A stretch of 54,021 bases of DNA from an uncultured Ruficoccus sp. (GCA_965140785.1 OZ223503.1:1-54021); one strand, 5' to 3'. Counted from the first letter of the stretch, positions 35,388 through 51,300 are shown. Made by a program: numbers and translations. The notes: generated from the sequence alone by a model not told the origin.

Positions 35388-36134
35388 TTAGTTGGGCGGT
35401 TCGAAATAGTAATCGAAGACGCCGGCGTTGGGCTCGATCGAGTTCCATCGCAGGCTCTGGTGGGTATTTTTATTCACCTGGGTGAGAATGGTGTAGGGCA
35501 GGAGCACCCCTTTGACACTGCGATAGTCCTCGAAGATACTGGTGGTTTCCTCGGTTTCGCCTTTGTTATTGGGGGCATCGACCGTCCGCTGGAGCAGTTT
35601 GAGGTCGTCTTTGGAGAGGTAGTAACGCTCGCTGCCTGGGAGCTTGGGGCGGGTGACCTCGATGACATAGGCTTCGGTACCGTTGAGGGTTTGCTCCTCC
35701 AGCAACTGGTAGGTATAGGAAGAGTCCCGGTAGCTGACCAGCGGGTCGATCAAGTCGCATTCGCGGATCAGGTTCGCCGCCTCCATGCCCTCAAGCACCG
35801 TGCTCTCTAGTAGATGGCCGTTTTGCGCGGTGCGCATCCAGCAGGTCGTCCCGTCGTAGCCGAGGGTGACTTTTCGCTGCGCCTGCTGCATGACGAGGCG
35901 GATCATATGCGGGCGCTTCTGGATGACGATGACGTCCGTGACATGCTGGCCGTTTTGGCTCAGACTGCCTTCCCAGCGCAGGCTGTTCAGATCCTGGATC
36001 GTGTATCTGCCCCCGCGCTGCTCCACGTAGCCCTGCAGGATTTCCCGCAACTGGGGGTCGGAGACATCGGCGTGGCCGGTGCCGGCCAGCGCCAGCCAGG
36101 AGGAAAAAAACAGGGCAGTCAGGGTAGTGCGCAT
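35388..36134 (-). CDS. LolA-like / outer-membrane lipoprotein-sorting fold protein
   Basis: Signal peptide; GYDGTTCW, FEDYRSVKGVLLPY, C-terminal F..P pattern. Confidence 0.6.
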   Translation of the reverse strand: MRTTLTALFFSSWLALAGTGHADVSDPQLREILQGYVEQRGGRYTIQDLNSLRWEGSLSQNGQHVTDVIVIQKRPHMIRLVMQQAQRKVTLGYDGTTCWMRTAQNGHLLESTVLEGMEAANLIRECDLIDPLVSYRDSSYTYQLLEEQTLNGTEAYVIEVTRPKLPGSERYYLSKDDLKLLQRTVDAPNNKGETEETTSIFEDYRSVKGVLLPYTILTQVNKNTHQSLRWNSIEPNAGVFDYYFEPPN

Positions 36135-36182
36135 CCTTAAGTGTATCGGCAAAAGCGTTAGTGTACTTAAGAGTAAAAACGC

Positions 36183-36962
36183 TTACGCCGGGCTAGGCAA
36201 GCCCGGGAATAAGGTGCGACGGAGCCAGTCCAGGCACGCGCCTGCCCAGTCGTACTCGGCGTTGAGGCCGAGGCCGTGGCCGCCGTGTTTGTAAACATGA
36301 AGCTCGTAGCTGACCCCCGCCCGCTCCAGAGCCTGGGCGAAGAGGAGGCTGTTCATCGGGGCGACCGATCCGTCCTCGCGTGTGTGCCACAGGAAGCAGG
36401 GCGGTGTCTGGGGGGAGACCAACAGCTCCGGCGAGGTGGCGGCGGCCTGCTCGTCCGTGGGTTCGCCGCCGTGGAGCTTTTGAGCCGATCCGGCGTGGCG
36501 GTGGGGGCCCTTCATGCTGATCACCGGATAGCACAGGATGCCGAAGTCCGGGCGCAGGGAAATCTCTTCGCTGTACTGGTCCCAGGCGGTCAGGCAATGC
36601 GCCGTGAGGTGTCCCCCGGCTGAAGAGCCCATCACGCCGATCCGGTTCGGGTCGAGGCCGAACTCCTCCGCCCGGCTGCGGACGGCATGGACCGCGGCCA
36701 GCGCGTCCTCCAGCATGGCCGGGTGCTGGGCACCGTCGGGGGCGACGCGGTAGCGCGTCACAAAGCACGCGTAACCGGCGGCGGCGAAATACTCCGCGTA
36801 GCCTTTACCCTCGTGCTCGGCATGGCGCTGGTAGCCGCCGCCCGGAAAGATGATAATGGCCGCCCCGTTGCGGTCGGCTTCGTCGGGCAACCAGGCCTGC
36901 ATGGCGGGAGCCGGGTTCGTCGTGCCCGAGGGGAGGGTACCGTGAAGGCTGAAAGTTTCCAT
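36183..36962 (-). CDS. Alpha/beta hydrolase (carbohydrate esterase-like)
   Basis: FPGGGY, GSSAGGH, RPDFGILCYPVI, DGSV, GGHGLG; ATG at 36962. Confidence 0.9.
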   Translation of the reverse strand: METFSLHGTLPSGTTNPAPAMQAWLPDEADRNGAAIIIFPGGGYQRHAEHEGKGYAEYFAAAGYACFVTRYRVAPDGAQHPAMLEDALAAVHAVRSRAEEFGLDPNRIGVMGSSAGGHLTAHCLTAWDQYSEEISLRPDFGILCYPVISMKGPHRHAGSAQKLHGGEPTDEQAAATSPELLVSPQTPPCFLWHTREDGSVAPMNSLLFAQALERAGVSYELHVYKHGGHGLGLNAEYDWAGACLDWLRRTLFPGLPSPA

Positions 36963-37042
36963 TGCCGACGATGATGAGCTTTCCCGTCCGGGTTTCCAAT
37001 AAAAACAACAGCGGAAGTGACGGAAGCGGGGGAAATCTTTGA

Positions 37043-37216
37043 TCAAGGAGTGTCCTCAAGGGGCGTGAGCGCGGTCGAGCCGGGGGGCAGTGGTGGATAG
37101 CGCTGCTCAAAACCGGTGGGGAGCATGGGCTCAACAGGTGCGGTGGTTGGCTCCGGTTGGCAGCCTCCAAGGACGAGACTAAGCGTCCAGAGAACGAACA
37201 GTAGCAGCTTGTTCAT
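37043..37216 (-). CDS. Small Pro-rich lipoprotein (o-spanin-like)
   Basis: 57 aa: MNKLLLFVLWTLSLVLGGC lipobox followed by a Pro-rich tail; starts inside the 3' end of the upstream gene in another frame. Confidence 0.5.
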   Translation of the reverse strand: MNKLLLFVLWTLSLVLGGCQPEPTTAPVEPMLPTGFEQRYPPLPPGSTALTPLEDTP

Positions 37217-37643
37217 CGGTGAGGTCAAAGAGGCCCCCGTCGGGCTGAGGGTCGAGCTCATAAAGCGTCTTGTCTGCAGCCATCAAGGAACAGACGGAGT
37301 GGCCGCTGCGGGGGTTGGCCGGATCAGTGAGGAAATGAATTTCGGCCAGGGCGGGCTTGAGTGCGGAGTGGCCCATGGCGTTTCTGAGTAGGACGTAGGC
37401 GATGAAAAGCCGGCTCCAGAAGTCGCAATCGCCTTTGCTCCAGGTCCACTTATACGCCCCGTACGGGCCGAGGATGGCCTCCATCCAGGAGAGAAACTGC
37501 CGGTAAAGCTGCACGGTCTCGGCTCGCTCCACCGTATGGTAGCGGCTGTCCCGGAAGGTCGTTCGGGTGGCCGGCAGGTGGGCATAACGCCGCGCGAGAG
37601 CGGTGACCCAGGTGAGTTTGTCGATCTGCTTGGAGGTGGGCAT
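37179..37643 (-). CDS. Putative papain/transglutaminase-like cysteine peptidase
   Basis: GDCDFWS ... GHSVC ... YELDPQ spacing fits a Cys-His-acid triad. Confidence 0.45.
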   Translation of the reverse strand: MPTSKQIDKLTWVTALARRYAHLPATRTTFRDSRYHTVERAETVQLYRQFLSWMEAILGPYGAYKWTWSKGDCDFWSRLFIAYVLLRNAMGHSALKPALAEIHFLTDPANPRSGHSVCSLMAADKTLYELDPQPDGGLFDLTDEQAATVRSLDA

Positions 37644-37650
37644 TGTGGGA

Positions 37651-37689
37651 TAAAAGAAGCCCGCCCCGGCAGGGCCTTCCGGGGCGGGC
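37651..37689 (-). terminator. Intrinsic terminator within the phage-like cluster
   Basis: 11-bp stem GCCCGCCCCGG / CCGGGGCGGGC followed by TTCTTTTA on the minus strand. Confidence 0.65.
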
Positions 37690-37703
37690 GGGTGTTACGC
37701 GGA

Positions 37704-38204
37704 TCAGCGGGAAACCAGTTCGTTCCTGGCTTCGAAAAGCTGCTGGTAGAGCACTCCGCCGTAGTTTTCGCCGGAGGCCGGGGTGGCGCCCACCGTGGTG
37801 GCCTCGGCGGTGCTCTGGTTTTCGAGGGAGGTCATCAATGCCTTGATGAGCGCGGTTTTTTCGTCATCGGGGAGAGGGGCGGACTCGATGTCGGACACGA
37901 CCGCGCTGGCGGCTTGAGCGGCGTTGGCGCCGGTCTCAAAGGCTTCGTCCACCGCATCGAGAAGGGTAAGCAAGTGGTCGCGATAGGGGTCGGTTTCATT
38001 GACCCCGTCGAGGAAGGCTGTGAAACCGATGTTGAGGGCGAGCTTCGCCGCGGCCTTGCCCAACGTGACGGCGGTGTCCTTGACGGCGTCCGGGGTCTGC
38101 TCCCACAGACTTTGCAGGGTGTCACAGCCGGTGAATACACAGGCGGGCGTGGTGGCGGCGATGCCGAGGGCGGTGAGGAGATGGAGCTTTTTAAATGTGT
38201 TCAT
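37704..38204 (-). CDS. Helical lipoprotein of the phage-like cluster
   Basis: Hydrophobic leader ending VFTGC; Ala-rich helical mature part. Confidence 0.65.
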   Translation of the reverse strand: MNTFKKLHLLTALGIAATTPACVFTGCDTLQSLWEQTPDAVKDTAVTLGKAAAKLALNIGFTAFLDGVNETDPYRDHLLTLLDAVDEAFETGANAAQAASAVVSDIESAPLPDDEKTALIKALMTSLENQSTAEATTVGATPASGENYGGVLYQQLFEARNELVSR

Positions 38205-38240
38205 GGTGTATGTGTATTGATTTTTGGATACGTGAGTTGG

Positions 38241-38510
38241 TCAGCGCTTGGGGCCATGGGGGAGCGGGCTCGGCGCTGCCGCGGGCTTGGGCGCCCGCTT
38301 GAGCAAGCGATTCTGCTCGGCGGTGTGGGCGCCGGATTCGGTATCCGTGCGGTCGTTGTCGCGGGCGAAGAGGAAGCCGATGCCGGAGAGCACAAGGGCG
38401 ATGTCCTCGGTGTTCGGGAAACCCTCCCCGCTGAAGAGGGTATAGAGCGCGCGTGCCCCTCCCGCCAGGATGGCGAGAATGGCGACAGTGGTGGTTTTGG
38501 GCGACTTCAC
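38241..38510 (-). CDS. Holin-like small membrane protein
   Basis: MKSPKTT... two TM segments ending GIGFLFARD, charged C-terminus; resembles small phage holins. Confidence 0.55.
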   Translation of the reverse strand: MKSPKTTTVAILAILAGGARALYTLFSGEGFPNTEDIALVLSGIGFLFARDNDRTDTESGAHTAEQNRLLKRAPKPAAAPSPLPHGPKR

Positions 38511-38522
38511 TTTAACTTCACT

Positions 38523-38759
38523 TTAGATAGCCGCGATTTCGGCGGGGGTTAGGGTGAGGTCCTGCGTGGATGCGTCATCCAGCAGGACGGAGAGGGTGAG
38601 CGTCTCCGGGTTCCAGGTACCGGAGACGGCGTTGGCGGGGGCTTCCTTGCCGGCGGGGAAGGGAGCTTCGCGCTGGCCTCCTGGGACGTTGAAGCGCATA
38701 CGGGCCTCGACGGTGGAGCCGTCCGGGGTGCGGAAAAGATAGGCGTCTGCAAATTTCAT
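38523..38759 (-). CDS. Small hypothetical protein (possible fibre chaperone)
   Basis: 78 aa beta-rich ORF starting 2 bp after the fibre gene stop. Confidence 0.55.
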   Translation of the reverse strand: MKFADAYLFRTPDGSTVEARMRFNVPGGQREAPFPAGKEAPANAVSGTWNPETLTLSVLLDDASTQDLTLTPAEIAAI

Positions 38760-38761
38760 GG

Positions 38762-41077
38762 TCAGTAAGTTTGGTAGTTGATGATGATGTCCACGTCGGA
38801 GAGAGAGGCGACGGGCACATCCTCGACGATAGTTTCATGAGCCCCGCCGCTGGAGCGCTGCACGTCCAGGCTGGAGCCGTCCGGCAGGAGACGGATGCGC
38901 CGACGGGTGGCCGTCTGCGTGCCGCTGGCCGGGTAAAGCTGGCCGTCCACGATGACAGAGGTGACTACGGCATTAGCGGGCAGGATGTCACCCCCGCGAA
39001 TCAGGTACATCGCGCTAGAGGCATCGGCGCTTCGCACTCGCAAAAAGGCGGTGTGATTCGGCGCTGTCCATGTCGCACCTGTTTCGGACAAAACACCATC
39101 ATAGGCGCTTGGGCTGGCGTCATGCAGCTGGGAGCCAATGCGGGAATCCTGCGCGGCGGAGAAGGCGGCCAATGCGCCGAGCTGGGTAATCTTGAGGTTT
39201 CGAATCGCGGCCCAGTCGGTATCGTTGCCTGTGTAGGCGTTTTGCCCTGCACTACGCAGATATACGTATGCATTAGCTGAAGTGAAGGTGGAGGCATCTA
39301 TCACCCACATGAGGGTTACCCATTCGTCGGTCGCAGTGACGACATCGAAACGAGTTGAGCCACGAATGGCTAAGCCCAAGTTGTCCACCACCGTGTTGGA
39401 GGAGGGGAAATAATAGTCAATGGAGACTAGAAACAGACCCGAAGTTGCAGTAAAGGGGCTGAATGGAACAAAGTTTAACAGGTGACCGCCCGTCGAAGTA
39501 TCGGAGGTAAGCACCAGCGCGTCATCCACCCCGTCAACGGTCTGGCCCGGATTTGTGGTAAGTCCGGAGGTTCCCCACCCGTCCAGGCCCGCGCTCCAGT
39601 CCGAGCTGTAGATGCCGCCGGGCGACCCCGCCCAACGATAGATTGGTGGCACCCTCGGCCATGTGGGTTGGGGAGTATAGATGGCAGCTATTTCAGAGGC
39701 CGAAAGAGCGAGGTTGAAAACGGCGACGTGCTTAAAATAGCCGGTCCAGAATTGCTCTAGGCCTTCGAGCGAGGTTTCGCGTACGCCGATGTAACGAATC
39801 GCCGGGTAATCCGTGGTGTCGGCGGATGTATCCACACTGCTCACCAATGCCCCATCGACATATAGCTTTACTAACCCGCTGTCCCCACTCACAGCTACGC
39901 GATGGAATTTTGCATCATTGATGCTGTGGTTGCCTAAAGAAAAGGTCGGTCCCCCTATGTTGTAAACGAGCCACTGGCCGCTTGAGGGCTGATAGTTTAT
40001 GGATAAGCCACCTGGGCCCTCCACTCCGCCACACAGGCTATACCGGTTGGTTGAGGCGGCGGAACCTGCGTACTGCACCTCAGCGGCGAAGGTCCATTGC
40101 TCTCCGGCTGGCACGGGGTTGGGCAAGGCGATGTAGCCGCTCACGCCGTCCAGGTACAGGGACGCGCCGAAGGGCTTGGCGGCCAGCTCGTCGGTCTCGG
40201 CCTTGCTGTAAATATCGAGTTGTTCACGGGCCGTCGAGGGACTGGGTAAATCAGCAAGGTTACTGGCTGCGCGCAGATAGCGGGCGTCCCCGATGCGTCG
40301 GTTGAGCGCATCCGCCTCAGCGCTAGCATCACCGACCTGTGTCAGGCGATTGTCATGAAAATCCACGACACCATCAGTGCTGACGTTCAGTCCGGCGAAG
40401 GTCGGAGTAGCCGTCTCACCCAAACCGAGGTTTTCGCGGGCAGCGGTGGTATCGGACAGGTCGGCAAGATTATTGCTCAGTTGCAGGAAGCGGGCGTCAG
40501 CTTCGTCGGTATTGTAGAAAGTTTCCGGCGCGTTGCTTTCCGGGGAGGCCGACTGACTGAGACCGCCACCGAGCACACGAATGGGACCGGCACACACGGT
40601 ACGGGTCAGACCGGGGCTGTCGTTGGTGGTAATGGCGATGGTCAGCCAACGGTCGCCGGCGGCGATGTTGCTCTCGGCTGCGCTCAGCGAAATCAAGGCG
40701 TGGCAGTGCTCTGGATCCCGGGAATTCCAGTTGGTTTCAGTCAGGCCTGTGTTCAAGTCTGACGCGGCAATGGTTTTGCTTCGGATCGGCGTCAGGCTCA
40801 GGTCGGGGCCTCGCAGGTCGTAGTTGTCGGCGTCGTCGTCCTCGGCGAAGCGTTCGATCAGTTCCGCGTCCAGCGGCTTGATCTCCAGCGTCACGCTGGC
40901 GATGCCGGAGAGGTCCTGCAGGGTGCCGTTATTAAAGAAACCGATCTCGAACTGTATGTCGTCGCCTGCGCGGAATTTTGGGCGATAGTCCTCGTCGGCG
41001 CGCAGGACATCGTTAAAAGCTTCGAAGCGGAACAGGTCCGCCGCGATGCGGATGCGGGTCTTGGGAATGGTACTCAT
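38762..41077 (-). CDS. Fibre/receptor-binding protein with LamG (concanavalin-like) domain
   Basis: N-terminal Ig/BppU-like segment; fibre repeats NNLADLSDTTAARENLGL and SNLADLPSPSTAREQLDIY; LamG motifs LYLDGVSGYI, FHRVAV, LYVDG, VFNLALSASEI. Confidence 0.7.
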   Translation of the reverse strand: MSTIPKTRIRIAADLFRFEAFNDVLRADEDYRPKFRAGDDIQFEIGFFNNGTLQDLSGIASVTLEIKPLDAELIERFAEDDDADNYDLRGPDLSLTPIRSKTIAASDLNTGLTETNWNSRDPEHCHALISLSAAESNIAAGDRWLTIAITTNDSPGLTRTVCAGPIRVLGGGLSQSASPESNAPETFYNTDEADARFLQLSNNLADLSDTTAARENLGLGETATPTFAGLNVSTDGVVDFHDNRLTQVGDASAEADALNRRIGDARYLRAASNLADLPSPSTAREQLDIYSKAETDELAAKPFGASLYLDGVSGYIALPNPVPAGEQWTFAAEVQYAGSAASTNRYSLCGGVEGPGGLSINYQPSSGQWLVYNIGGPTFSLGNHSINDAKFHRVAVSGDSGLVKLYVDGALVSSVDTSADTTDYPAIRYIGVRETSLEGLEQFWTGYFKHVAVFNLALSASEIAAIYTPQPTWPRVPPIYRWAGSPGGIYSSDWSAGLDGWGTSGLTTNPGQTVDGVDDALVLTSDTSTGGHLLNFVPFSPFTATSGLFLVSIDYYFPSSNTVVDNLGLAIRGSTRFDVVTATDEWVTLMWVIDASTFTSANAYVYLRSAGQNAYTGNDTDWAAIRNLKITQLGALAAFSAAQDSRIGSQLHDASPSAYDGVLSETGATWTAPNHTAFLRVRSADASSAMYLIRGGDILPANAVVTSVIVDGQLYPASGTQTATRRRIRLLPDGSSLDVQRSSGGAHETIVEDVPVASLSDVDIIINYQTY

Positions 41078-41133
41078 CGTGGATGGCGGTAAAGGGTTGG
41101 AAAAGGATGGGCGGACGCTGTCCGTATAAAAAG

Positions 41134-41595
41134 TTAAAGCCCGCTCAACTGGTCGCCGCTGAGACGGATGGAGCGCTTGCGGGCGACCTCCAGGCCGAAC
41201 TCGGTGCGGACCTCCGGGCTTTTCTGGGGATTAGTGGGGACGCGGACGGGCAGCTTGCCGTCGCGGATGCGGTCGAGGACATCCTCGGCCTCGTCGATCT
41301 CGTCCTCCTGCGATTCGCTCAGGAGAAAGCCCCGGATCTTGCCGCGCAGCTCGGCCATGGCCATTAGGCAGGCGGTGCGCTTGAGCTCCGGGGGGATCGT
41401 GGTCTCGTCCTCGGCGAGGATATTCGTCTCCTGGCTGCGGATGTCGGCCCGGATGCGGCTGACGGTCTGCTCCAGGATGGGCGCGAGCGGGTCGCCGCTG
41501 CCGCCGCGGTTCGGGCGGGTCAGGAGCGTCTCGACCTGGGCGGTGCTCAGGTAGGCGCGCAGATCGGCCTCGGTGATGGGTATCCAGTTTGTCAT
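41134..41595 (-). CDS. Mu gp36-like head-tail adaptor (DUF1320-like)
   Basis: WIPITEADL, IPPELKRTAC and LDRIRDGK motifs; positioned after the major capsid gene. Confidence 0.65.
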   Translation of the reverse strand: MTNWIPITEADLRAYLSTAQVETLLTRPNRGGSGDPLAPILEQTVSRIRADIRSQETNILAEDETTIPPELKRTACLMAMAELRGKIRGFLLSESQEDEIDEAEDVLDRIRDGKLPVRVPTNPQKSPEVRTEFGLEVARKRSIRLSGDQLSGL

Positions 41596-41616
41596 GACAA
41601 AATAAAAAGAGTAAAT

Positions 41617-41648
41617 GGAAGGGCGGGGGAGTGGCCGCCCGCCCTTCC
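41617..41648 (-). terminator. Hairpin/terminator after the major capsid gene
   Basis: 11-bp stem GGAAGGGCGGG / CCCGCCCTTCC followed by a T-rich tract on the minus strand. Confidence 0.55.
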
Positions 41649-41664
41649 TGGATGGCGGGAGGGG

Positions 41665-42606
41665 TTAGGAGGCGCTGACGGCGAGCTTGCGCATGCCGAG
41701 GGCGCTGGTGGCGATGACGGTGCTGTAGTGTTCGACGGTGAGGTCGGTGTACTTGGCGGATTCTTCCACATAGACGCGGAAGTTGCCGCCGCCGTCCACC
41801 GGCGTGACGAAGCGCTTCAGGTTCGAGGGCTCGTCCTTGGTCACGGCGTTCTGCTCGAAGAAGGCATAGACGGCGTTGCCGACCAGGCCGGTCTTTTCGC
41901 TGGCGCTACTCTGGTAGCGGGCTCCGGCGATGCGTACACCCTCGACGAAGAGCTTGCGGGCCAGGCTCTGCGGATCGAGCGCGAGCGAGCGGAAGGCCCC
42001 GGCGTTGTCCTGCGCCTCGTAGGCGGCGGCACGCAGGTCCCAGGCGCCTTCGCCGACGAGGAGGCGGTTCGGGCGCACGCCACTCTCGTCGGTGGCGTCG
42101 ATCAAGGCCGCGCGGATGTCCGCGTCCGGCGTGCCGGTCTCGTCCCAGGTATGGCTGGTGGACGAGGCGGCGGCGTCGAGCGCGCCGATGGCGCGGCGCA
42201 GGTCGTTGCGCAGCAGGCGCTGGAGCAGGATCTGCACGTAGCGCTCCTGCCAGTCGTCGCCGTAAACCTCGTCGTGGTCGATGCGCATGGTCAGGCCCTT
42301 GTTCAGCGTCTTGGCGTTGACGGAGTCGCCGGAGTACTCGACGCGCTTGAAGGCGCTGCCGATGGCGCGCACGTCGTCGGCCTCGGAGAAAAAGGCCTCG
42401 GCGTTGGTGGCGCGCTTGAACTCGAAGCGCCGGCCCACATTGACGCGGGGGGCGACGAATTCGAGCAGCTCGTCGAGGTTCTCGGGGTCCTTCCAGCCGA
42501 CGGTGAAGGCCGTCAGCGGCTCGGAGTAATGGGTGGCGTTAAAGCGGCTCTCATTGGCGGCTGCGATCTCGCCGGGGCGGGAGGTGTCAAGTTTCTCGGT
42601 GTTCAT
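41665..42606 (-). CDS. Major capsid protein (HK97-fold, inferred)
   Basis: 313 aa from ATG at 42606; APRVNVGRRFEF, PDADIRAAL, GVRPNRLLVG; position after protease and cement genes. Confidence 0.75.
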   Translation of the reverse strand: MNTEKLDTSRPGEIAAANESRFNATHYSEPLTAFTVGWKDPENLDELLEFVAPRVNVGRRFEFKRATNAEAFFSEADDVRAIGSAFKRVEYSGDSVNAKTLNKGLTMRIDHDEVYGDDWQERYVQILLQRLLRNDLRRAIGALDAAASSTSHTWDETGTPDADIRAALIDATDESGVRPNRLLVGEGAWDLRAAAYEAQDNAGAFRSLALDPQSLARKLFVEGVRIAGARYQSSASEKTGLVGNAVYAFFEQNAVTKDEPSNLKRFVTPVDGGGNFRVYVEESAKYTDLTVEHYSTVIATSALGMRKLAVSAS

Positions 42607-42646
42607 ATGTGAATCGAAGTTGAAGGATGATTGTCGTGATGGATGA

Positions 42647-43186
42647 CTACGCGATAGGCAGCACGCGGACTTTGTCCGGAGCCTGCTCCAGGACGGCGGC
42701 CAGGCTGACCACGTCCGTGTTGCCGTTGCCGGAGAACGCGTCCATGACGATGAGCTTACGCGGTGCGCACGGCTCGACCTCCAGGACGGCGTTGTCGCCA
42801 GTGGCGGCGGTGACGGCGCGGCCCACCTGGTAGTAGGTGCCGGTGGCGGCGGGTTGGTCCTGAACCTTGCCGCCAGCGGCGGTGTACACGTCCTCGCCTG
42901 CTGAAATGGCCTCGGATGCGACCATAAGCACGGTCGAGGGCGAGGTGCCCAGAAGGTTGATGTTGACCGGGTCGCCGGGCGCGCCGGCGTCGGTGATGAC
43001 GCCCAGCGGGCTGTCACTGGCACTGCAGGGGCTGACCTGGCTGGCAGAGCCGCCGATCTTGCCAAGCAGATGGCGGACGGAGACGGCGCTTTCCAGCGTG
43101 CGGGTGATCAGGCCCGCGTGAATGCCCTCGGCGGTATTGGAGAACACCGGGCGGGCGCGGAATAATTGTTTGATAAAACGAATCAT
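42647..43186 (-). CDS. Capsid cement/decoration protein (DUF2190-like)
   Basis: PLGVITD, MVASEAISAGEDVYTAAGGKV, VGRAVTAA..D..VLEV. Confidence 0.75.
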   Translation of the reverse strand: MIRFIKQLFRARPVFSNTAEGIHAGLITRTLESAVSVRHLLGKIGGSASQVSPCSASDSPLGVITDAGAPGDPVNINLLGTSPSTVLMVASEAISAGEDVYTAAGGKVQDQPAATGTYYQVGRAVTAATGDNAVLEVEPCAPRKLIVMDAFSGNGNTDVVSLAAVLEQAPDKVRVLPIA

Positions 43187-43275
43187 GATGGATGGTTGTT
43201 GGTAGTTATGGATGAGTTCTGCCGGAGGAATCCGGGGTGGAGATAAACCAGAGTGTCGTGAAAAATTGAATACGT

Positions 43276-44403
43276 TCAGATGAGGTTGAGCTGGTCGTAG
43301 AGGTCGGGGCGGTCGCGCTTCATCGCGGACCAGGCGGTAGTGAAATCTTCGCCGGTGCTGTCGGCGCGCTCGTTGACCAGGGCGAGGAAGTCCCGGCGCT
43401 TCTGCACGAGCGGGGCGCGTCGGCCGAGTCCCTCGGTGCGGGGCTGAGTGTGCAGGGCGTGCCCGGCGTTACAGAGCTCGCGCAGCCCGGTCTCGAAGTC
43501 GGCCTCCAGCCCGCGCTCCCAGGTCTCGCGCTCATGCGGGAGGATGCGTCCGCGCAGCAGGGCGTGGTCGATGAGCAAAGAGATGCGTGCGCGCCGCTCG
43601 TTGGCGAAGTCCTCCCGCGTCTGGGTGCGGGACTTTTCGCTCTCGTTAGCGATGCGGTAAAAACGCTCGTTCTCAGCCGACAGTTCCTCGTTGGTTTCGG
43701 CCAGGGCGGCCCCCTCCTCCTCCCAGCGCTGGGCGTTGGCGACGAGTTCGCGGCAGGCGGCTTGCCAGTCGCCCTCGGGATCGACGCCGATCAGCTCCAG
43801 CACATCGAGCGCCTCGACCGGACGGACCTCGGTCGGTTCTTGATCGCGATAATCATTTGTTTCATCTTCGCCAGAGCCGCCCCCTGAGGTTACTTCGTCG
43901 TCATCGAGGGGGCGAATTTCGTTGGCAATGGCTTCGCCGGGGATGTTGGGCTGGTTGGTCAGGCCGATGGAGATGAGCCGGACCGGCTCGTACACATCGG
44001 CGTCGAGGTGCCGCATGGCCCAGCGCGGCGAGAGGAATTTATAAAAGGCGTTGCTCAGCAGTTCGCGCCCGGCCTGTGACCAACGCGGCAGGATGTAGAG
44101 GCCGTCGTCGCGGTCCTGCATGTCGGCGATCCAGGCGTAGGCACGGGTGTCGTCGTGGCCGCTTTGCCCGGCAAAGCCCGGGTCATCCGGGTGGCCGATA
44201 TAGACGGGGAGCCCGCCGAAGCGCCGCGCGAGCCGTCCGCGCAGAGACTTGAAATACTCGCACATGCGCCCGGCTGCTTCGCGGCTGAGGCGCTGGATGC
44301 CGCGCGTGTGCGGCCAGTCGCCGTAGTCGGCAAGTTTGAGCCAGCCGGTGGTGGCATTGGACCATTCCTGGGTGACGAGTGTGCTGATGGTGTCTTCTTT
44401 CAT
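43276..44403 (-). CDS. Mu gpI-like prohead protease with C-terminal scaffold
   Basis: PVYIGHP, AYAWI, W...GRELL...YKFLSP and GLTNQPNI motifs; coiled-coil tail with GRILP; ATG at 44403. Confidence 0.85.
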   Translation of the reverse strand: MKEDTISTLVTQEWSNATTGWLKLADYGDWPHTRGIQRLSREAAGRMCEYFKSLRGRLARRFGGLPVYIGHPDDPGFAGQSGHDDTRAYAWIADMQDRDDGLYILPRWSQAGRELLSNAFYKFLSPRWAMRHLDADVYEPVRLISIGLTNQPNIPGEAIANEIRPLDDDEVTSGGGSGEDETNDYRDQEPTEVRPVEALDVLELIGVDPEGDWQAACRELVANAQRWEEEGAALAETNEELSAENERFYRIANESEKSRTQTREDFANERRARISLLIDHALLRGRILPHERETWERGLEADFETGLRELCNAGHALHTQPRTEGLGRRAPLVQKRRDFLALVNERADSTGEDFTTAWSAMKRDRPDLYDQLNLI

Positions 44404-44473
44404 TTTCAGTTTTTGAAAAGTGGTTAAATAGTTGGAGTGTTCACAGTAAGGGGCAGAGGTCTTACTTGTTCGT

Positions 44474-45691
44474 TTATTGTCCGCTGAGCGGAGCGTCGCT
44501 TTTGCCAAGCAGGCGGCGGACGAACTGGTTGATGACCTTGGGGATGACGGTGCTGATGAGGTCGCGGGCGGTGTCGAGTTCCTCGGCGGAGAGGCCGCTC
44601 TCCTTGTGGCGGATAATGACCCGTGCGCGTGGCTGTTCGGTCTTGAAAAGGTAGCGCAGGACGGGGCGGTCCACCTGAGTGTGAAGAGTGCCGGCAATGT
44701 GCTCGGCGTCCTCGCGCTCGATCAGGGCGGTCTCCTTGCCCTGGAGCGAAATACCCGCCCCGGAGTCGGCGACTGTGCCCATGCTGCTACCGCGCCAGAG
44801 GGTGGCGATGGCCTTGTCCATGCGGTCCACGAGCGCGGGGTAGGGAAGCTCGCCGGTGCCGCGCAGGTCGATGGCCTCGATCTCGGTGCCGCGCGACATG
44901 AGCGCGTGAAACTCCGCGCCGAAGTCCCGCACGGCCTCGCGGGCTGCCTCCCACTCGGGGGTGTCGGGGGCGGCATCGGTTACCCCACGCACGCCGGGCA
45001 TGCCGTTGCGCTCGCAGTACACGAGCCAGTCGCGCAGAGGCAGGTGCTTGAACAGGTAGGCGATGGCGGTCGCCTCCATCAGCCCGTCGCCGGTGGTGAT
45101 GAGCCAGCCGTCCCGCTCCAGCGAGCGACCCTCGACAGCGGTTTCGCTCTCAAGGAAGCGCAGCCGCCCGGTGCGGTTTTCCATGAACCACAGCGGCACG
45201 AATCGGAACTGCGCGGTCAGCAATGTCGCGGGCAGGGGCGGGTTGTCGCCGTCCGGGCCGCCGCTCGTGCGGACTGGTTGCCAGACGATTTCGTGGACGG
45301 CGTAACGCTTGCCGACGGCGTCCATCATCTGGCGCACGAGCAGGGAAAAACCGCCGGATTCATTCAGGTCGCAGGCATGGGCGGCGGTCAGTTGCCGGTA
45401 GAAGAACTTCAGCGCGGCGGCGTGGCGGCGCGCCTCTTCGGAATCGTCGAAGGTCTCGATCTCCCAGCCGAAGCGTCCGACGGCTTTCTTGCGCTTGGTG
45501 GCGACGGCCTTGACCAGGTCGTCGCGCTGTTCGATCGCCTCCCAGGCCAGAGCGGCCTGGCGCATCTCTCCGGCGTGGAAAGCATCGAGCATGCGGGTCA
45601 GCGTGTCCGGTGTCAGGTGCCGGATCGGGTTAAAGCGGGCGCGCCGCGAAGTGCGGGCGCGGTCGGTCGGGATGAGGGAGGCGGTTTTCAT
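44474..45691 (-). CDS. Portal protein, Mu gp29-like (DUF935)
   Basis: LTP..L..ML, KRKKAV, MMDAVGKRYAVHEIVW, DWLVYCERNGMP. Confidence 0.85.
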   Translation of the reverse strand: MKTASLIPTDRARTSRRARFNPIRHLTPDTLTRMLDAFHAGEMRQAALAWEAIEQRDDLVKAVATKRKKAVGRFGWEIETFDDSEEARRHAAALKFFYRQLTAAHACDLNESGGFSLLVRQMMDAVGKRYAVHEIVWQPVRTSGGPDGDNPPLPATLLTAQFRFVPLWFMENRTGRLRFLESETAVEGRSLERDGWLITTGDGLMEATAIAYLFKHLPLRDWLVYCERNGMPGVRGVTDAAPDTPEWEAAREAVRDFGAEFHALMSRGTEIEAIDLRGTGELPYPALVDRMDKAIATLWRGSSMGTVADSGAGISLQGKETALIEREDAEHIAGTLHTQVDRPVLRYLFKTEQPRARVIIRHKESGLSAEELDTARDLISTVIPKVINQFVRRLLGKSDAPLSGQ

Positions 45692-45724
45692 GGAGGTGGC
45701 GGTGTGTATTGAAGATTGGATACG

Positions 45725-47170
45725 TTAGCGGGTGCGGGAAGCGGCGTTGAGGGATTCGTAGTGGGAGCGGGCGGCGGGCCGGCGCCCGGCCTGGAGCGCC
45801 AGCGCCAACGCCCAGAAGCGGTCGGCGTGGCCGTTGGCGCCGCGTTCGGCGCAGAAGCGGATGTTCCCGCTGGCGGTGGCTTCCTTTTTGACCGCGCGCA
45901 GGTCGGCGCGGATTTTTTTATCCGGCGGGATGCGCAGGGTGCGGTTCTCGAAGGCGCTGCGCACGGGGTAGGCGAGCGATTCCTTGAGCCCGGCGGTGAA
46001 GGTCACGCCCTCAATGCGGTAGCCGCCGTAGCGGGCGGCGGCGCGCTCGGCGAACTGCCGCCCGAGACCGCTCTGGTCGATGCAAGCGCGGCGCAGAGTG
46101 GGCAGCGAGAGAAAGGCGTCGAGCACCTCCTCCTGCTGTGCGAAGGGCGTGCGCTCGAGCGTGGTGATATTACGGGTGAGGAAAAGGTCGTTGATGCGCT
46201 CGACCAGCCAAAAAACGGACAGGTCGTGCTCGCGCCCGATGTCCACGCCCAGGAACAGGTCGTGCGCCAGGCGCAGGTCGCGGCCCTCGTCGGGGGCATT
46301 GAGCGAAATCTCCCACTCGTCGTGGGCGGCATATTCGCACTCGCTGATCAGCTCCCAGGTGAGAAAGGCGGTCGTGTCGTCGGCGGGGCGGCAACAGTAC
46401 TCCTGGTTAAAACTTTCCTCGTCGGCACAGGAGGTACGGATGAAATCGTAGTAGGCGGCCTCGTCCATCTGGCTGCGCGGATCTTCGGGCGGGAGCTTTT
46501 CCTTGAGCTTTTGCAAAAAGCCCTGGTCGAGCGCGTCCTGGAGGGTGACGCGGTGGTGCGAGAAGCCCTTCGGGTTGCCCTGCTCGGTGATTTCGCGGAT
46601 GAGCTGATTGAAGAAATTGTTCGAGCCACGGTGGGTGGAAACGATCTCCAACTGGCCGCCCCAGGTGATGCCGGGGTAGGCGATGGCGTAGAGCTGGCGC
46701 GGGTCGGGATGGAGCGCGAACTCGTCCAGCAGGCGCGTGCCTCGCTTACCGGCCTGGGCGTCGGCATTGCTGGAGAGGCAGTGCAGGCGACGGCCATTGG
46801 CGAACTCCAGCGCAAAGGCCGAGCCGCGCCCTTCGTCGATAACGGTGCAGCCGAGGTCGCCGGCGGCGCGGTGCAGGATACCGGCGAAGGCCTTGGCGTC
46901 CTCCAGAAAAAGCCGGGCCTGTGTCTCGTCCCGGGAGGATATCCAGGTGTCCAGCCGGGCATCGGTTCGGGCCTGCTCGCGCACCAGCCGGTAGGCGCTG
47001 GTCCAGGACATGCCGATCTGGCGCGACTTTTCCATGAGCTTGAGCCGCGAGCGGTCCTCGATCCACTTGCGCTGATAGGGCAGGAAGAACGGTAGCGGCT
47101 CACCCTTGGAAACGGGCATGGCAGTGCTTGGCCGGCTGTCGGCGGGGGCTGTTTGCTGGGCGGCGGTCAT
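45725..47170 (-). CDS. Terminase large subunit, Mu gp28-like
   Basis: FLPYQRKW, KSRQIGMSW, LLDEFA, IVST, LGVDIGREHD, IDQSGLG, HADRFWALALA. Confidence 0.93.
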   Translation of the reverse strand: MTAAQQTAPADSRPSTAMPVSKGEPLPFFLPYQRKWIEDRSRLKLMEKSRQIGMSWTSAYRLVREQARTDARLDTWISSRDETQARLFLEDAKAFAGILHRAAGDLGCTVIDEGRGSAFALEFANGRRLHCLSSNADAQAGKRGTRLLDEFALHPDPRQLYAIAYPGITWGGQLEIVSTHRGSNNFFNQLIREITEQGNPKGFSHHRVTLQDALDQGFLQKLKEKLPPEDPRSQMDEAAYYDFIRTSCADEESFNQEYCCRPADDTTAFLTWELISECEYAAHDEWEISLNAPDEGRDLRLAHDLFLGVDIGREHDLSVFWLVERINDLFLTRNITTLERTPFAQQEEVLDAFLSLPTLRRACIDQSGLGRQFAERAAARYGGYRIEGVTFTAGLKESLAYPVRSAFENRTLRIPPDKKIRADLRAVKKEATASGNIRFCAERGANGHADRFWALALALQAGRRPAARSHYESLNAASRTR

Positions 47171-47745
47171 AGGAGTTTGAGCATCTGTTCGATGTCGGAA
47201 AGGGTTTCGGGGGTCAGGCCGTTGCGTTGCTCGGCTTCCTTGAGATGGTTGAGTAGCTGTTGCTTTTTCTCTTCGCGCTCGAGTCGCTCCTGCTCGTAGT
47301 CGTGAAGTTTCTTTTCAAGGCCGCTCATCTGGGTAAACGACGAGCAGAGGCGGTGAATGATGGACGAGAGCGTGTTGAGCTCGGAGATTTCTGCGGTTTG
47401 AAAGGACTGCACCAGCTCGAAGACGATTTGCCACGTGCGTTCGAGGGCGTCGCGGGCGGTCGTGTGTCCGGGGTTGTACTGTTCGAGGATTTGGTTGGTT
47501 TGCTCACGGGCGTGGGCGAGATGTTCGAGGTGGTTATGAAAGGGTTGGGGAAAGCCCATCGGTGAGGGGGCGGAGCCGGTGGCTCCGCCCGCCTCGGGGT
47601 TGGGTTGCCGGGTTTTCCTCGTCTGCCCGTGTGGATGGGCCGACTCGAGGGAACCGCCCGGCGTCGGTGTCTCACTACTGCTCTGGCTGTTCTGGTTTTT
47701 CCCTGATTCCGGTTTCCCGGAGAAAGTTTTTTGGGGTGTATTCAT
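47167..47745 (-). CDS. Putative terminase small subunit, Mu gp27-like (DUF3486-like C-terminus)
   Basis: Overlaps the large terminase start; C-terminal coiled coil ending GLTPETLSDIEQMLKLL; low-complexity N-terminus. Confidence 0.6.
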   Translation of the reverse strand: MNTPQKTFSGKPESGKNQNSQSSSETPTPGGSLESAHPHGQTRKTRQPNPEAGGATGSAPSPMGFPQPFHNHLEHLAHAREQTNQILEQYNPGHTTARDALERTWQIVFELVQSFQTAEISELNTLSSIIHRLCSSFTQMSGLEKKLHDYEQERLEREEKKQQLLNHLKEAEQRNGLTPETLSDIEQMLKLL

Positions 47746-47759
47746 TTTTAAATACACGC

Positions 47760-48029
47760 TCAGGATTCGCTCAGGCCGTTGGCATCCAGGAAGTCCTGGC
47801 CGCGGGCGGCCAGCCGGTAGCGCTTGTCGGACGGGTCGAGATCGGGCAGGGCGCTGTCGATGAGTTTCTTGTCGTCGAGGTAGGCGAGTTCGCGGCGCAG
47901 GATGCGCTCGGTGATCTCGTGTCCGGCATGGCGGATGCCGATGCGGAGTGTATCGACGGGAAGGCAGGCAGGCGCTGCTGCCTCGAGTTGGAGCAAAATA
48001 ACTTCGCGGAGATGTTGGCGTTTGATCAT
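47760..48029 (-). CDS. Mu gp26-like winged-helix protein
   Basis: REVILLQL, RRELAYL...LI and YRLAARGQD motifs; position immediately before the gp27-like gene. Confidence 0.65.
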   Translation of the reverse strand: MIKRQHLREVILLQLEAAAPACLPVDTLRIGIRHAGHEITERILRRELAYLDDKKLIDSALPDLDPSDKRYRLAARGQDFLDANGLSES

Positions 48030-48058
48030 GGATGACGGGCTGAAAGGGTGAGGGCTAG

Positions 48059-48158
48059 GTTGCCTGGGTTGAGCCTTAGTTGCCTCGGTGGCGATGCAGA
48101 TATTATCACGGATTTTCGATCACACAATCGTTCGGTTGGGTGGGTTGGATCGGTTGGG
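48059..48158 (-). promoter_or_regulatory. Candidate promoter/operator region of the phage-like operon
   Basis: Extended -10-like TGATAATAT (48108-48100); direct repeats GTTGCCTsGGT (48059, 48079) and TCGGTTGGG (48132, 48150). Confidence 0.35.
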
Positions 48159-48314
48159 ATAAAAAGTTTTTGGCGGCGGTACGGGCAGATTTCTTTTGCG
48201 GTAGCCGGATGGATAAATTCCACGCTGGCAGGCGCTTGTGGAATACTTCCATTGCAGGGGTGATTTTTGGCTGTCAATAAGGGGGTAAGTCCTCATGCTC
48301 GGCGGCGCTTTTCT

Positions 48315-51300
48315 ATGCGGCGTCAACGCTCATTCTGGCTGATGGCGGCAGCTCTACTCGGGGCTGCGTGGGTTGGCGTATGGCTGATAAAACTACCGTC
48401 CCCTGCCGATGTGCAGACGGACCTGCCCGGGGAAATGCGCTCGCCCACGGCAACCAACCTCGCGACCGCGAACGCTGGCGCGACGGATGAGTCAGGAGGC
48501 CTGGAGGCATAGCGGCCCGGGCTCAACTGCAGGCGAATGTGTCAGGGCGAGTGGATCGACCGGCCCAGGTGGACCGCTTGGAAGGCGCGCGGGTGCTGGA
48601 AGAGCGCTGGGAGGATTTACCGGCTGGGGGCACGCAGCGGTTACGCCTGATCGAGTACCCGGGGCAGGCTCACCCTTTGCGGGTGGTGGAAGTCTTTGAG
48701 AACACAGGGGAGACTGAGCCGACACGGGTCTCACAACTGCGATGATCGCCGATCGCCTGCTCGTGCCCGCCGATTCGCCGCAGCAGGCCGCGTACTGGCG
48801 CGAGCGGCTTCAGCAGGTCGGGTACACGGTGGAGCAGGGAGGCTCGCCGTATCTGGTAAAAATCGCTCTGCCGCTCGCGACGCTTGAGGCCGTGCCGGAG
48901 GCATTGGCTGCTTTGGCGGCAGCAGATTTTGGCGGCCTGAGGGCCGAGCCGGACTATCTGCGCTTTCCGGCGCTTGAGCCGGACGATCCGGAGCTGCCCG
49001 GGCAGTATGCGCATGAGCGGATGGACAGCTGCCGGGCCTGGGATGTGACGGCTGGCTCGCCGGATGTCGTGCTGGCAATTCTCGATACGGGGATGGACCT
49101 CGATCACCCGGACCTGGCGGCAAATCTGTGGACGAACCCCGGGGAGATCGCGGGCAACGGCCTGGACGACGACGGCAACGGCTACGTCGATGACGTCCAT
49201 GGCTGGGACGTCTATGCCGATGACAATATGCCCAACGATACCGATGGCCATGGGACGCATGTGGCCGGTGTCGCCGGGGCGGTGGGCAATAACGCCGTTG
49301 GCGTGGCGGGCGTGAACTGGTCAGTGGCGCTGCTGCCGGTGCGGTTGGGAGAGGGCAGTTTTGCCGCCTCCGAGATTGTCGAGGCGCTGGACTACATTTA
49401 TGACCTGCGTACCAAGCGGGGCATTCCCATTGTTGTATCCAATAATTCCTATGTCGGTGCAGTCGTCGGCGAGAGCGAACGCGAAGCGATCGAGCGGCAG
49501 GGAGAGGCGGGCATCGTCTTTGTCTGCGCGGCCGGTAATCAAGGCGTGGACGTCGAGCAGACGGAGGTGTATCCCGGTGTATTGTCCGGTGAATACATCG
49601 TCAATGTCGCCAGCTCGGATGCGGCGGATAAACTGGCGGACTCGTCCAACTACGGCGTGGAGTCGGTCGATCTGGCTGCCCCCGGCGTCTCCATTCTGTC
49701 TACTGCAATTGGGGGCGGCTATGTTAGCCGGAGCGGGACTTCGATGGCGGCGCCTCAAGTGAGCGGGGCGCTGGCTCTGGCCTTCGCGGTTGACCCTGAG
49801 ATGGATTGGCGGGAGTTGAGGTCGGCTCTGCTCGAGAGCGTTGATCCTGTCCCTGCGCTCAGCGGTGTGACCGTGACGGTGGACGGCTTAATCTCGGACG
49901 ACTGATCGATACGGTGGCCGGAGTTGCAGAGGTGGACATCCTCTCTCCCACCGATACGGTTTGCCTGATCGATCCGCGGGCCGCCCTGCTGCTGGAGGCC
50001 AGGGTGACGGTCGGCGGGGAGGTTTTTATCCCGGAAGGGGGCGTGAGCTGGACGGTCTCTCCAACGTCGGGAGCTGTGCTCACGCAAGAAGGCGAGACAA
50101 GGGTGCAGGCGAGCTTTGCGACGGCGGGCATCTACACCGTGAGCGCGTCGGTCGAAACAGACGGTATTGTGCGCACGGACACGCGCGCAGTGGTGGTCGG
50201 CTCGCGGGCCGTGGCCGAGGGCCTCGTGGCCGAGTGGGGCTTCGAGGGTGAGAGCAGCGCTGTCACGGACAGCTCCGGGCAGGGATGGGACGGCACCCTT
50301 CAGGAAGCCGCGGGCCGGGGTGCGGGCGTGGTGGGCTCGGCCTACCGGGCGCAGGGACAGAGCGACCAGGGGGTGACGCTGGCGCAGCTTCCCAGTCTGC
50401 CCGAGGTCACTCTATGCGCCTGGGTGAAAGCGGAGTCCGACGCCAATGAATTCCCAAGAATTGTCGAAGGGCCGGAGTGGATCTTTTATCTTGGACTCAC
50501 CGACGGAACGCATGTGGAATGCTTAAAATTCAGCAGAATATTTAATGTCTACGCCGATGGCTGGTATACGCCTATCGGCTCCATTCAGACCGGGCGGTGG
50601 TATCACGTCGCTGCTACCTGGAGGGACGGAGACGAGGCCCGAGTCTGTACATTGATGGTGTGGCCCAACGGGTGGAGCAGGAGCGATACGGATCTCAGGG
50701 CCTGGTGTACGGTCCCGGCCCTGCTTGGCTCGGTAACGATGAAACGGGCAAACGTGCACTGGACGGCAGTCTGGACGAAGTGCGGATTTACGACCGGGTG
50801 TTGTCGCCGTCGGAGATTGCAATGTTGGCAGCGAACCACGCCCCCTCGCCGATGCACCGGAGAGCCGGGTGGCGGACCTTCAGGGGGCTTGGGAGTCAGT
50901 GACGGCGGTGGCTGACGAGGATGGGCCTCACCCACTCGCCTGTGTCTGGAAGGTGCTGAACGGTCCCGGCGAGCCCACGGTCGAGGGGGGCGAGACTACC
51001 CGCCCGGTCTTCACCTTTGACGCACCGGGCGTGTATACGGTGGCGCTGGAGGTGGATGATGGCGAGGCCCGCGCGCGCTACAGTTGGCAGGTCGAGGTGG
51101 ACGGCCTGTATCGAGTTTCTATGACAAGCGAAGATGGTGAGCTACTCCTGATGTCGGCGAACCGCTTTCCCGTAAATATCGGTGTCGATTTTACGCCTGC
51201 GCAGGCACTCACCCTCGGCTATACGCTGGGTGGTGACGGGGTCGCCGGGGAGGACTTCGCGGCGCTTTCCGGCACGCTGACTCTGGCCGCCGGGGCGGAC

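Follow-up and report, generated by a model that had tools for sequence, protein, structure and literature searches.

We describe a candidate domesticated phage head and DNA-packaging module in a 54,021-nucleotide stretch of DNA from an uncultured Ruficoccus sp. (GCA_965140785.1, OZ223503.1:1-54021; hereafter, the window). The module is a cluster of nine genes that resembles gene transfer agents (GTAs), and its particles would probably carry host chromosomal DNA. Our best explanation as a whole, which we favour with reasonable but far from complete confidence, includes vertical inheritance of the cluster since one capture at the root of a Puniceicoccales-type clade within the order Opitutales (Verrucomicrobiota). 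Judging from the sequences, the module is very likely domesticated and functional and fairly likely packages cellular DNA, and its chance of mediating gene transfer between cells is somewhat below even. An earlier reading of the window, below called the sequence-only reading, had proposed a Mu-derived GTA-like operon at 37043..48029, and had named presence in related genomes, conserved synteny, congruence with the host tree and a ratio of non-synonymous to synonymous substitution (dN/dS) well below 1 as signs of its maintenance by the host.

Gene content of the cluster

The nine genes are colinear on the minus strand, from 48029 to 38762, with short gaps or none (Table 1). Families were assigned by Pfam and PHROG scans of the open reading frames (ORFs) of the window; NCBIfam and PADLOC were scanned additionally, and the NCBIfam scan of the cluster gave nothing over the cut-offs. 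In DNA as GC-rich as this, the gene starts given are approximate. The starts of g5 and g7 were set at ATG 44406 and ATG 42606, and the start of g2 is uncertain, with an alternative ATG at 47745.

The family searches agree with the sequence-only reading for the large terminase, portal, protease/scaffold, cement, capsid and fibre genes. The small terminase and the adaptor that it had claimed are matched weakly (PF11985 and PF07030, both under cut-offs), and their position in relatives is conserved: the gp27-like gene was found by hidden Markov model (HMM) in 5/5 family-level loci tested, and the gp36-like position is kept in 17/20 relatives' loci, the gene not being found in loci L015 and L017. 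The first gene, which had been called gp26-like (47760-48029), matched only phrog_436 and faint winged helix-turn-helix (wHTH) families, so this name is not retained. It is kept in the genus, in several other families and in viral contigs, just upstream of the gp27-like and TerL genes, and was undetected by HMM in loci L014-L018. Possibly it is a DNA-recognition partner of the terminase.

The catalytic positions are strongly conserved. Among 63 distinct host sequences of TerL, 110/481 positions are at least 95% identical. They include K48/R50/G53, D149-E150, S178-T179-H180, D310, D365 and D450, which we take to be the Walker A, Walker B, coupling-motif and nuclease residues. In the protease, residues H72 and S126 are at least 95% conserved (70 sequences). 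The major capsid protein (MCP), for which no match reached the Pfam cut-offs, is 55-90% identical across the order. In public annotation the corresponding genes of Cerasicoccus arenae are named DUF935/portal family protein, terminase, LamG protein and hypothetical proteins, and carry no GTA flag.

Table 1. Genes and other features of the cluster region, with dN/dS between the window's own genome (G000) and four congeners (G001-G004)
Feature	Position	Strand	Family match or remark	dN/dS
Conserved non-coding block, 61 nt	48099..48159	-	~70-130 nt upstream of first gene	
g1, 89-aa winged-helix-like (wHTH) protein, first gene of operon	47760..48029	-	phrog_436 (function unknown) 2.8e-9; faint HTH families	
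g2, gp27-like, putative small terminase	47167..47757	-	PF11985 Phage_Mu_Gp27 E 3.8e-3, under curated cut-off	0.40-0.54
g3, TerL, large terminase (packaging ATPase and nuclease)	45725..47170	-	Terminase_6N/6C; phrog_5909 3.9e-33	0.17-0.24
g4, Mu-type portal	44474..45691	-	PF06074 Portal_Mu 1.8e-56	0.09-0.12
g5, Mu gpI-type head maturation protease/scaffold	43276..44406	-	PF10123 Mu-like_Pro 2.6e-14; phrog_328 1.3e-17	0.14-0.19
g6, cement/decoration-like head protein	42647..43186	-	PF09956 Phage_cement_2 2.4e-8; phrog_673 9e-12	0.32-0.40
g7, major capsid protein (MCP)	41665..42606	-	phrog_1005 major head protein 6e-10	0.14-0.21
g8, gp36-like head-completion/adaptor	41134..41595	-	PF07030 E 2.6e-4 (under cut-off); phrog_195 head-tail adaptor 5.8e-3	0.20-0.34
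g9, 771-aa fibre	38762..41077	-	tail-fibre PHROGs and Laminin_G_3	0.16-0.30
Accessory block, five small ORFs g10-g14 and alpha/beta-hydrolase esterase	36183..38759	-	outside conserved unit	
Flanking gene corA				0.09-0.11
Flanking gene lolA				0.28-0.40
Flanking gene, subtilase				0.20-0.29

Absence of mobility genes and host-like composition

No transposase, integrase or repressor family was found among the ORFs scanned across the 54-kb window. The MuA, MuB, repressor, Mu F (gp30), sheath, tube and baseplate families likewise had no match in the window scans, no tRNA was found, and the search for flanking direct (att-like) repeats gave only imperfect matches at chance level. The lack of a transposase, repressor, integrase and end repeats, noted earlier, is thus upheld by both the window scans and the repeat search. 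An Rfam scan of 36000-50000 gave just two sub-threshold chance matches.

The flanks of the cluster and the rest of the window consist of ordinary host genes, e.g. those for SmpB, CobQ, ExbD, PPK2, fumarase and CorA. The GC content of the cluster (0.56-0.67) is similar to that of the rest of the window, and its GC content at third codon positions (GC3, 0.75-0.91) to that of the flanking genes; across genomes of 36-64% GC, the GC3 of the cluster follows that of the host. Both the host-like composition and the ordinary flanks had been seen in the sequence-only reading, and both are found here.

Distribution and genomic position

A scan of genome contigs found 191 stretches that encode a relative, and the best 80 of these were kept. 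The matches are titled Verrucomicrobiota, Opitutia, Opitutales or Puniceicoccales and include three cultured Cerasicoccus species. Two DNA sequencing runs of one study contain the window stretch, and for 41665-47170 the listing had no RNA run. The window's own assembly, G000, is 90.85% complete and has a single copy of the portal gene. All absences reported here rest on profile searches of draft genomes.

The portal gene is present in 24/40 relatives, with identities of 85-91% in the genus (4/4 genomes), 57-69% in the family and 47-66% in other families. At the level of the order it was found in 101/251 genomes, each at least 90% complete, so the cluster is indeed spread across much of the order. 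Carriers make up 11/12 genomes of family f1, 4/4 of f2, 19/21 of f3, 6/7 of f4, 9/9 of f8, 3/3 of f10 and 4/4 of f19; the gene was found in 0/21 genomes of f23, 0/20 of f33 and 0/5 of f21. With MCP as the query, the capsid gene was likewise unmatched in five non-carriers. The genomes of 38/101 carriers are 0.7-1.3 Mb in size, a count that covers carriers only, since 130 of the non-matching genomes are unlisted. Outside the order, a phylum-wide sample yielded only two matching genomes (E<=1e-20), whose ORFs were longer. In several f3 genomes (e.g. G128, G175, G113, G208) a further portal gene besides the conserved one was matched more weakly (E ~1e-92 to 1e-100, ORFs of 485-509 aa); it may belong to true Mu-like prophages or to a paralogous cluster.

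The cluster genes are colinear in 20 relatives' loci and occupy the same chromosomal place within the genus, in agreement with the synteny that the sequence-only reading had named. On one side the genus loci are flanked by LamG, PKD and corA genes, with a subtilase gene in 3/4 loci, and on the other side by a lolA-like gene and a gene of 340 aa, the latter matched in 3/4. The corA gene also lies a few kilobases upstream of the cluster in four loci of a second genus of the family, g6. In distant loci, too, the neighbours are host genes (ORFs scanned beside L014 and L020-L022). In the window, the subtilase, LamG and PKD-like genes that adjoin the cluster in the genus are divergent, lying on the plus strand at 48742-51849; it was in G003 that the subtilase was unmatched. 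This subtilase matches the PADLOC candidate model PDLC03014 at 1.7e-20, and it alone was matched by PADLOC, which gave no match for any of the 14 cluster ORFs.

Co-divergence with the host and single origin

A tree of TerL, portal and MCP (21 genomes; G005, G006, G014 and G015 left out) recovers genus g1, genus g6, family f1 and the small-genome clade, as does the rpoB tree of the hosts (33 genomes, single marker). Divergence of the cluster is correlated with that of rpoB (Mantel r 0.73 for 190 pairs from 20 genomes, with 0/5000 permutations as high; G002 has no full rpoB and was left out). In 0 of the 190 pairs is the cluster less diverged than rpoB. With shared clades and this correlation, the congruence of trees looked for was observed.

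A further tree combined the portal and MCP. Of the 119 rows in which the two proteins were present, 78 entered this tree, the others being identical at 90% or more to a row already included. A split with a support of 100 in the Shimodaira-Hasegawa-like approximate likelihood ratio test (SH-aLRT) separates 48/48 host rows from 26/30 viral rows. The viral rows on the host side are three IMG/VR contigs of 10-16 kb with the host-type gene order, and L165, which is sister to the rest. Given their short length and their colinearity with the host loci, the three contigs probably represent pieces of host genomes. The contig of L165, the nearest viral relative outside the host clade, contains a Mu Gam-like gene and a gene for a MuB/TniB-like ATPase, and there is thus moderate support for a transposable phage as the ancestor. 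A search of five viral records for the Mu transposase C-domain PF09299 was silent, as it was in control genomes, and hence is uninformative.

One possibility is a still-mobile lineage of prophages or satellites that merely co-speciates with its hosts. It would explain the host-type cluster on the three IMG/VR contigs and the second portal copy (E ~1e-97) in some f3 genomes. However, the window holds no mobility or replication genes, the ORFs scanned next to distant loci belong to the host, the flanks are shared throughout the genus, and corA is linked to the cluster across two genera. Moreover, no pair has a cluster divergence under the host divergence, and the three contigs are probably of host origin. 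We thus consider a mobile lineage very improbable.

Purifying selection and gene integrity

For the portal, MCP, TerL and protease, dN/dS is 0.04-0.24, well under 1, as the sequence-only reading would have it (Table 1). The low end of this range comes from the pair C. maritimus and C. frondis, which have the head genes only (portal 0.053, MCP 0.039, TerL 0.146). The ORFs have the expected length for the portal in 79/80 loci, for TerL in 57/62 and for MCP in 60/63, among the best 80 of 191; some short ORFs may be cut by contig ends. In one small genome (L025, 10372-11323) the capsid gene is matched by tblastn in two pieces in different frames, an apparent frameshift or assembly error.

These data bear on the possibility that the cluster is an inert prophage remnant that has yet to decay. 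It is without early, tail and lysis modules, as remnants are. On the other hand, the ORFs are intact over an order-level radiation, the catalytic residues are conserved, dN/dS is 0.04-0.24, and the cluster is kept in 38 carriers with genomes of 0.7-1.3 Mb. The selection data already contradict an inert remnant, and we regard it as extremely improbable.

Fibre, neck and tail-tip genes

In the fibre of the window cluster, an N-terminal anchor domain with a BppU_N-like fold (residues ~1-175) is accompanied by fibre repeats and a LamG/ConA-like lectin domain, and the C-terminus is variable. Its conservation across the order is confined to the N-terminus. In the AlphaFold2 model, residues 1-170 have a predicted local confidence (pLDDT) of ~90. 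The N-terminal domain aligns with the Sf14 neck chain 9c39_I (VIA-align Z 11.3, 112 residues) and with the N-domain of TP901-1 ORF48 (BppU), 3uh8_A (Z 10.3, 114 residues aligned of the 118-residue target). The BppU_N-type fold serves docking of fibres on a ring. The ESM Atlas, whose matches serve merely as leads, places the fibre N-domain close to hypothetical proteins of viruses and gives BppU_N at 0.80. Foldseek searches with the whole fibre model found generic ConA/LamG jelly-rolls only (pentraxins, the lectin-like subdomains of neurotoxin binding domains, a tailspike), and the model thus suggests a common carbohydrate-binding fold and nothing more.

In other families of the order the operon runs on past gp36 with the genes p154 and p132, often a fibre gene, then p578 (560-590 aa) and p190. 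None of p154, p132, p578 and p190 has a Pfam, PHROG or NCBIfam match, and PDB sequence profiles of p578, p154 and p132 gave no meaningful match. The AlphaFold2 model of p578 (pLDDT 86, from a 25-sequence alignment) was matched by Foldseek to central baseplate hubs and spikes, among them hubs of extracellular contractile injection systems and Photorhabdus virulence cassettes (eCIS/PVC), VgrG, Mu gp44 (1wru), the Mu baseplate (9ki1_G) and T4 gp27, with E of 4e-13 to 2e-7, the two Mu structures standing at 4e-13 to 4e-9. The model thus predicts p578 to be a gp27/VgrG-like hub. Its ESM Atlas leads are viral hypothetical proteins and one Sipho_Gp37 cluster. By inference only, p132 might be a Dit-like ring protein. 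Related phage contigs hold gp36, p132, the fibre N-domain and the hub in the same order; PHROG scans of their tail-side ORFs gave no family of known function except for a fibre-like ORF. Since both the other families and the related phage contigs hold these genes, the captured ancestor presumably had a neck and a tail tip. No ORF of tape-measure size was seen in the host clusters.

The window's family has lost these genes. The HMMs of p154 and p132 found nothing in G000, and those of p578 and p132 were silent in G001, G003, G004, G007 and G012, all at least 97% complete. What the window cluster has in place of a GTA delivery apparatus, i.e. a tail, is a neck-fibre-like protein only. Reduction goes further in some relatives. 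In C. arenae KCTC 12870 the genes from gp27-like through fibre are present. G007 has gp36 without the fibre, two genomes of the second genus have neither, and C. maritimus NBRC 105382 and C. frondis NBRC 105381 have the head genes only.

Two candidate tail parts elsewhere in the genus were considered and rejected. In G000, contig C45 (L033, 10673-14814, minus strand) encodes an ORF of 832 aa that faintly matches a tape-measure family (phrog_7025, 4e-7), followed by a 545-aa p578 homologue (HMM E 2.4e-97); this 14.9-kb contig also carries chemotaxis genes beside the pair. A displaced part of the cluster was not accepted here: a tape-measure-like ORF adjoins the homologue, and a profile that includes the homologue was silent in three same-genus genomes. 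The C45 genes are probably a separate prophage tail fragment. A siphovirus-type prophage with TerL (phrog_15), portal (phrog_21), protease, MCP, major tail and tape-measure genes was observed in G001, G004 and, twice, G003 (L034-L037); such a prophage was not detected in G000. The p154-like genes of G001, G003 and G004 sit in siphovirus prophages just upstream of the major tail gene, and were thus rejected as parts of the element. The prophage gene before the major tail gene is the sole family-level homologue of p154.

Since head-only forms exist, roles other than delivery and tail piracy are serious rivals to gene transfer. In the first case, tail-less capsids would be filled with DNA for a benefit such as DNA export or protection (extracellular DNA in biofilms, a substrate for transformation), or capsids would be used in some other way. 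Such a role would fit the very strong purifying selection on the head-only versions (portal 0.053, MCP 0.039), the lack of tail genes found in the family, and the conserved TerL motifs, hence the importance of packaging. In one 0.8-Mb genome (L021, 3873-5414) a ComM-like gene with Mg_chelatase/ChlI domains lies directly upstream of the cluster, which would also suit this role; it is not found in L022 and may be a coincidence. However, the lectin-like fibre of the window lineage and the hub and neck genes of other families point to adsorption to cells, and we know of no precedent for tail-less capsids with a benefit other than delivery. We hold this role to be unlikely.

In the second case, a chromosomally fixed, satellite-like capsid module would borrow the neck and tail of an infecting phage and serve defence, the spread of host DNA, or both. 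The related free phage contigs with homologous gp36, p132, fibre N-domain and hub imply that compatible tails circulate, the host clade adjoins these phages in the tree, and heads without tails are the architecture of capsid-forming phage-inducible chromosomal islands (cf-PICIs). On the other hand, there is no integrase, replication gene or att site, the position is fixed and inheritance is vertical, and PADLOC recognised no family among the 14 cluster ORFs. Moreover, the head-only forms are without the adaptor needed for joining a tail, and genomes of 0.7-1.0 Mb keep a version with a hub of its own. This makes tail piracy by a fixed satellite quite improbable.

Upstream region and other features

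The conserved block upstream of the first gene contains three CCAACC repeats at a spacing of 9 nt, followed by TTGTGT and, after 16 nt, TGATAATAT. It hardly varies among 5/5 genomes of the genus, and the surrounding intergenic DNA cannot be aligned. The triple CCAACC repeat is unique in the G000 assembly. A generic sigma-70 promoter scan did not call the block. It is a candidate regulator site with a promoter, and hints at control of the operon by the host. In G004 (L031, ~15320-15800) an extra ORF of ~148 aa, hydrophobic by eye, lies between the block and the first cluster gene.

Two other candidate signals were observed within the operon region. A 31-nt motif occurs three times (38211-38241, 45703-45733 and 47735-47765; 65-81% identity to the reference copy), at or just upstream of the minus-strand start codons of g12, the portal gene and the gp27-like gene, and may be a translation-initiation signal or due to chance. 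A GC-rich stem-loop (41621-41640, minus strand; consensus scan only) lies between the capsid and gp36-like genes, where it could attenuate transcription past the capsid gene.

The small ORFs g10-g14 of the accessory block have zero Pfam, PHROG and NCBIfam matches, and only g11 and g14 contain a hydrophobic segment, one each. Genes g11-g13 and the esterase were matched in G002 and G003, g14 in G002 only, and g10 in none. Of the four same-genus loci, two were without a match to the block: its place is taken by different sequence in G001, and g9 is directly followed by the lolA-like gene in G004. The operon extent proposed earlier is thus conserved for 38762-48029, whereas 37043-38759 falls outside, the unit ending at 38762. 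The lysis-type genes assigned to 37043-38759 did not hold up either, as no lysis family was matched and the block is not conserved in the genus. No endolysin or holin family was found by Pfam, PHROG and NCBIfam in or beside the cluster; such genes could sit elsewhere in the genome.

Possible function of the module

Because the module is vertically inherited and kept intact even in tiny genomes, the bacteria probably use the particles themselves, perhaps for DNA exchange. The following scheme is consistent with the gene content. A host-controlled promoter in the CCAACC-repeat block would drive the operon. The gpI-type protease/scaffold, the portal and the capsid protein would assemble procapsids; TerL and the gp27-like protein, possibly assisted by the wHTH protein, would cut cellular DNA and fill the heads; and gp36 would close the portal. 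In the window lineage the fibre would dock at the neck by its BppU_N-like N-domain, and its lectin-like domain would bind a surface glycan. The released particles would carry chromosomal DNA for the host population, in the manner of a GTA. We infer the cargo from the locus, which has nothing to replicate or integrate: the heads, if they carry any DNA, must carry that of the cell. The ancestral form would have had the neck and tail-tip genes p154, p132, p578 and p190, later lost in the window's family, with some species reduced to the head genes. As the tail genes of the window lineage are lost, DNA would not enter recipients via a conventional tail, and entry would have to rely on the uptake machinery of the recipient or on borrowed tails.

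A more tentative reading, which we consider rather doubtful, is that of an ancient, clade-wide "capsid-only" DNA-packaging organelle, a new kind of domesticated viral element whose function would be independent of a tail. The neck, tail tip and fibre would have been shed stepwise while the terminase, portal, protease and capsid genes were kept under strong selection, also in genomes of 0.7-1.0 Mb. Candidate roles are tail-less export or exchange of DNA with uptake by the recipient, and piracy of phage tails, combining defence and transfer.

Several observations speak against a vertically inherited, GTA-like module. Non-carriers are scattered among carriers on the rpoB tree, a pattern that takes six changes or more, and G008, sister to the carrier G007, has neither portal nor MCP; the element is dispensable in many lineages. 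We read the interleaved absences as losses, because the cluster and host trees are congruent. The trees themselves come from quick searches with SH-aLRT support only, and rpoB alone resolves deep nodes poorly. The dS of the head genes (0.29-0.85; 41665-47170) is below that of the flanking genes (~0.8-2.5) in the same genome pairs, which could reflect recombination within the genus or codon bias from high expression. Finally, neither a tail tube, a tape measure or a hub nor recognisable genes for lysis were found in the window's family, and delivery of DNA is hard to picture in species without gp36 and the fibre. Of the GTA-like Mu-derived operon of the sequence-only reading, there remains a host-maintained, morphogenesis-only cluster with Mu-type heads; its lysis genes were not retained, and it has no tail for delivery.

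If the interpretation as a GTA-like module is true, it adds a further independent origin of GTA-like particles, in a new phylum and from a different type of phage (Mu-type heads), spanning much of an order. Its retention in strongly reduced genomes is of interest as useless DNA is normally lost there. The forms with head, neck and hub, with head and fibre, and with the head only, each under selection, make up a series that serves as a natural experiment on the function of domesticated capsids, and three cultured Cerasicoccus strains make the element directly testable.

Comparison with known systems

The window cluster resembles cf-PICIs in having terminase, portal, protease, capsid and connector genes and no tail. 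However, cf-PICIs are mobile and possess an integrase, replication genes and att sites, whereas the window locus is without these features, syntenic and vertically inherited.

With the head module of Mu it shares the order of the gp27-like, TerL, portal, gpI-type protease/scaffold, major head and gp36 genes, as well as the Portal_Mu and Mu-like_Pro families. The ancestral hub is structurally similar to Mu gp44 in the predicted model, and the nearest viral outgroup has Gam-like and MuB/TniB-like genes. Unlike Mu prophages, the window cluster has no transposase, MuB, repressor, Mu F (gp30) match, sheath, tube or baseplate.

PBSX-like elements, BaGTA, VSH-1, Dd1, VTA and the candidate Faecalibacterium operons are host-maintained, phage-like particles that package host DNA, and those of the window cluster would probably be comparable. 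To our knowledge, the PBSX-like and the other listed GTA-like elements are all tailed.

GTAs have been defined as domesticated phages in the part of PMC8987985 drawn on here. The portion of 10.1101/2024.11.15.623857 used here describes few independent domestications of phages into GTA-like particles, mostly in Alphaproteobacteria, and lists as hosts Rhodobacterales, Desulfovibrio, Brachyspira, Bartonella, Caulobacter and Methanococcus, with Faecalibacterium as a candidate. Within that portion, none of the listed hosts belongs to Verrucomicrobiota, and no GTA is described as built on Mu-type head genes. In the literature on GTAs, on Verrucomicrobia/Puniceicoccales prophages and on Mu-like domestication, supplements aside, we found no description of the element.

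The closest analogy is with GTAs of the type of the Rhodobacter capsulatus GTA (RcGTA), although the origin is independent. The head genes of RcGTA are of the HK97 type, and its set of tail genes is complete (tape measure, distal tail protein, hub and megatron). The portal and protease of the window cluster belong to Portal_Mu and Mu-like_Pro, no HK97-type family was found for it at E<=0.01 (RcGTA being compared by family names), and it is tail-less. Packaging and transfer have been demonstrated for RcGTA, whereas the window cluster is known from its genes. Both are phage-derived structural clusters without replication, integration and repressor genes, vertically inherited over a large clade with scattered losses, under purifying selection, with a host-like composition and probably a host-controlled promoter. 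Indeed, in every evolutionary respect tested the cluster has the features of a GTA: it is free of replication, integration and lysogeny genes, inherited vertically and maintained by purifying selection.

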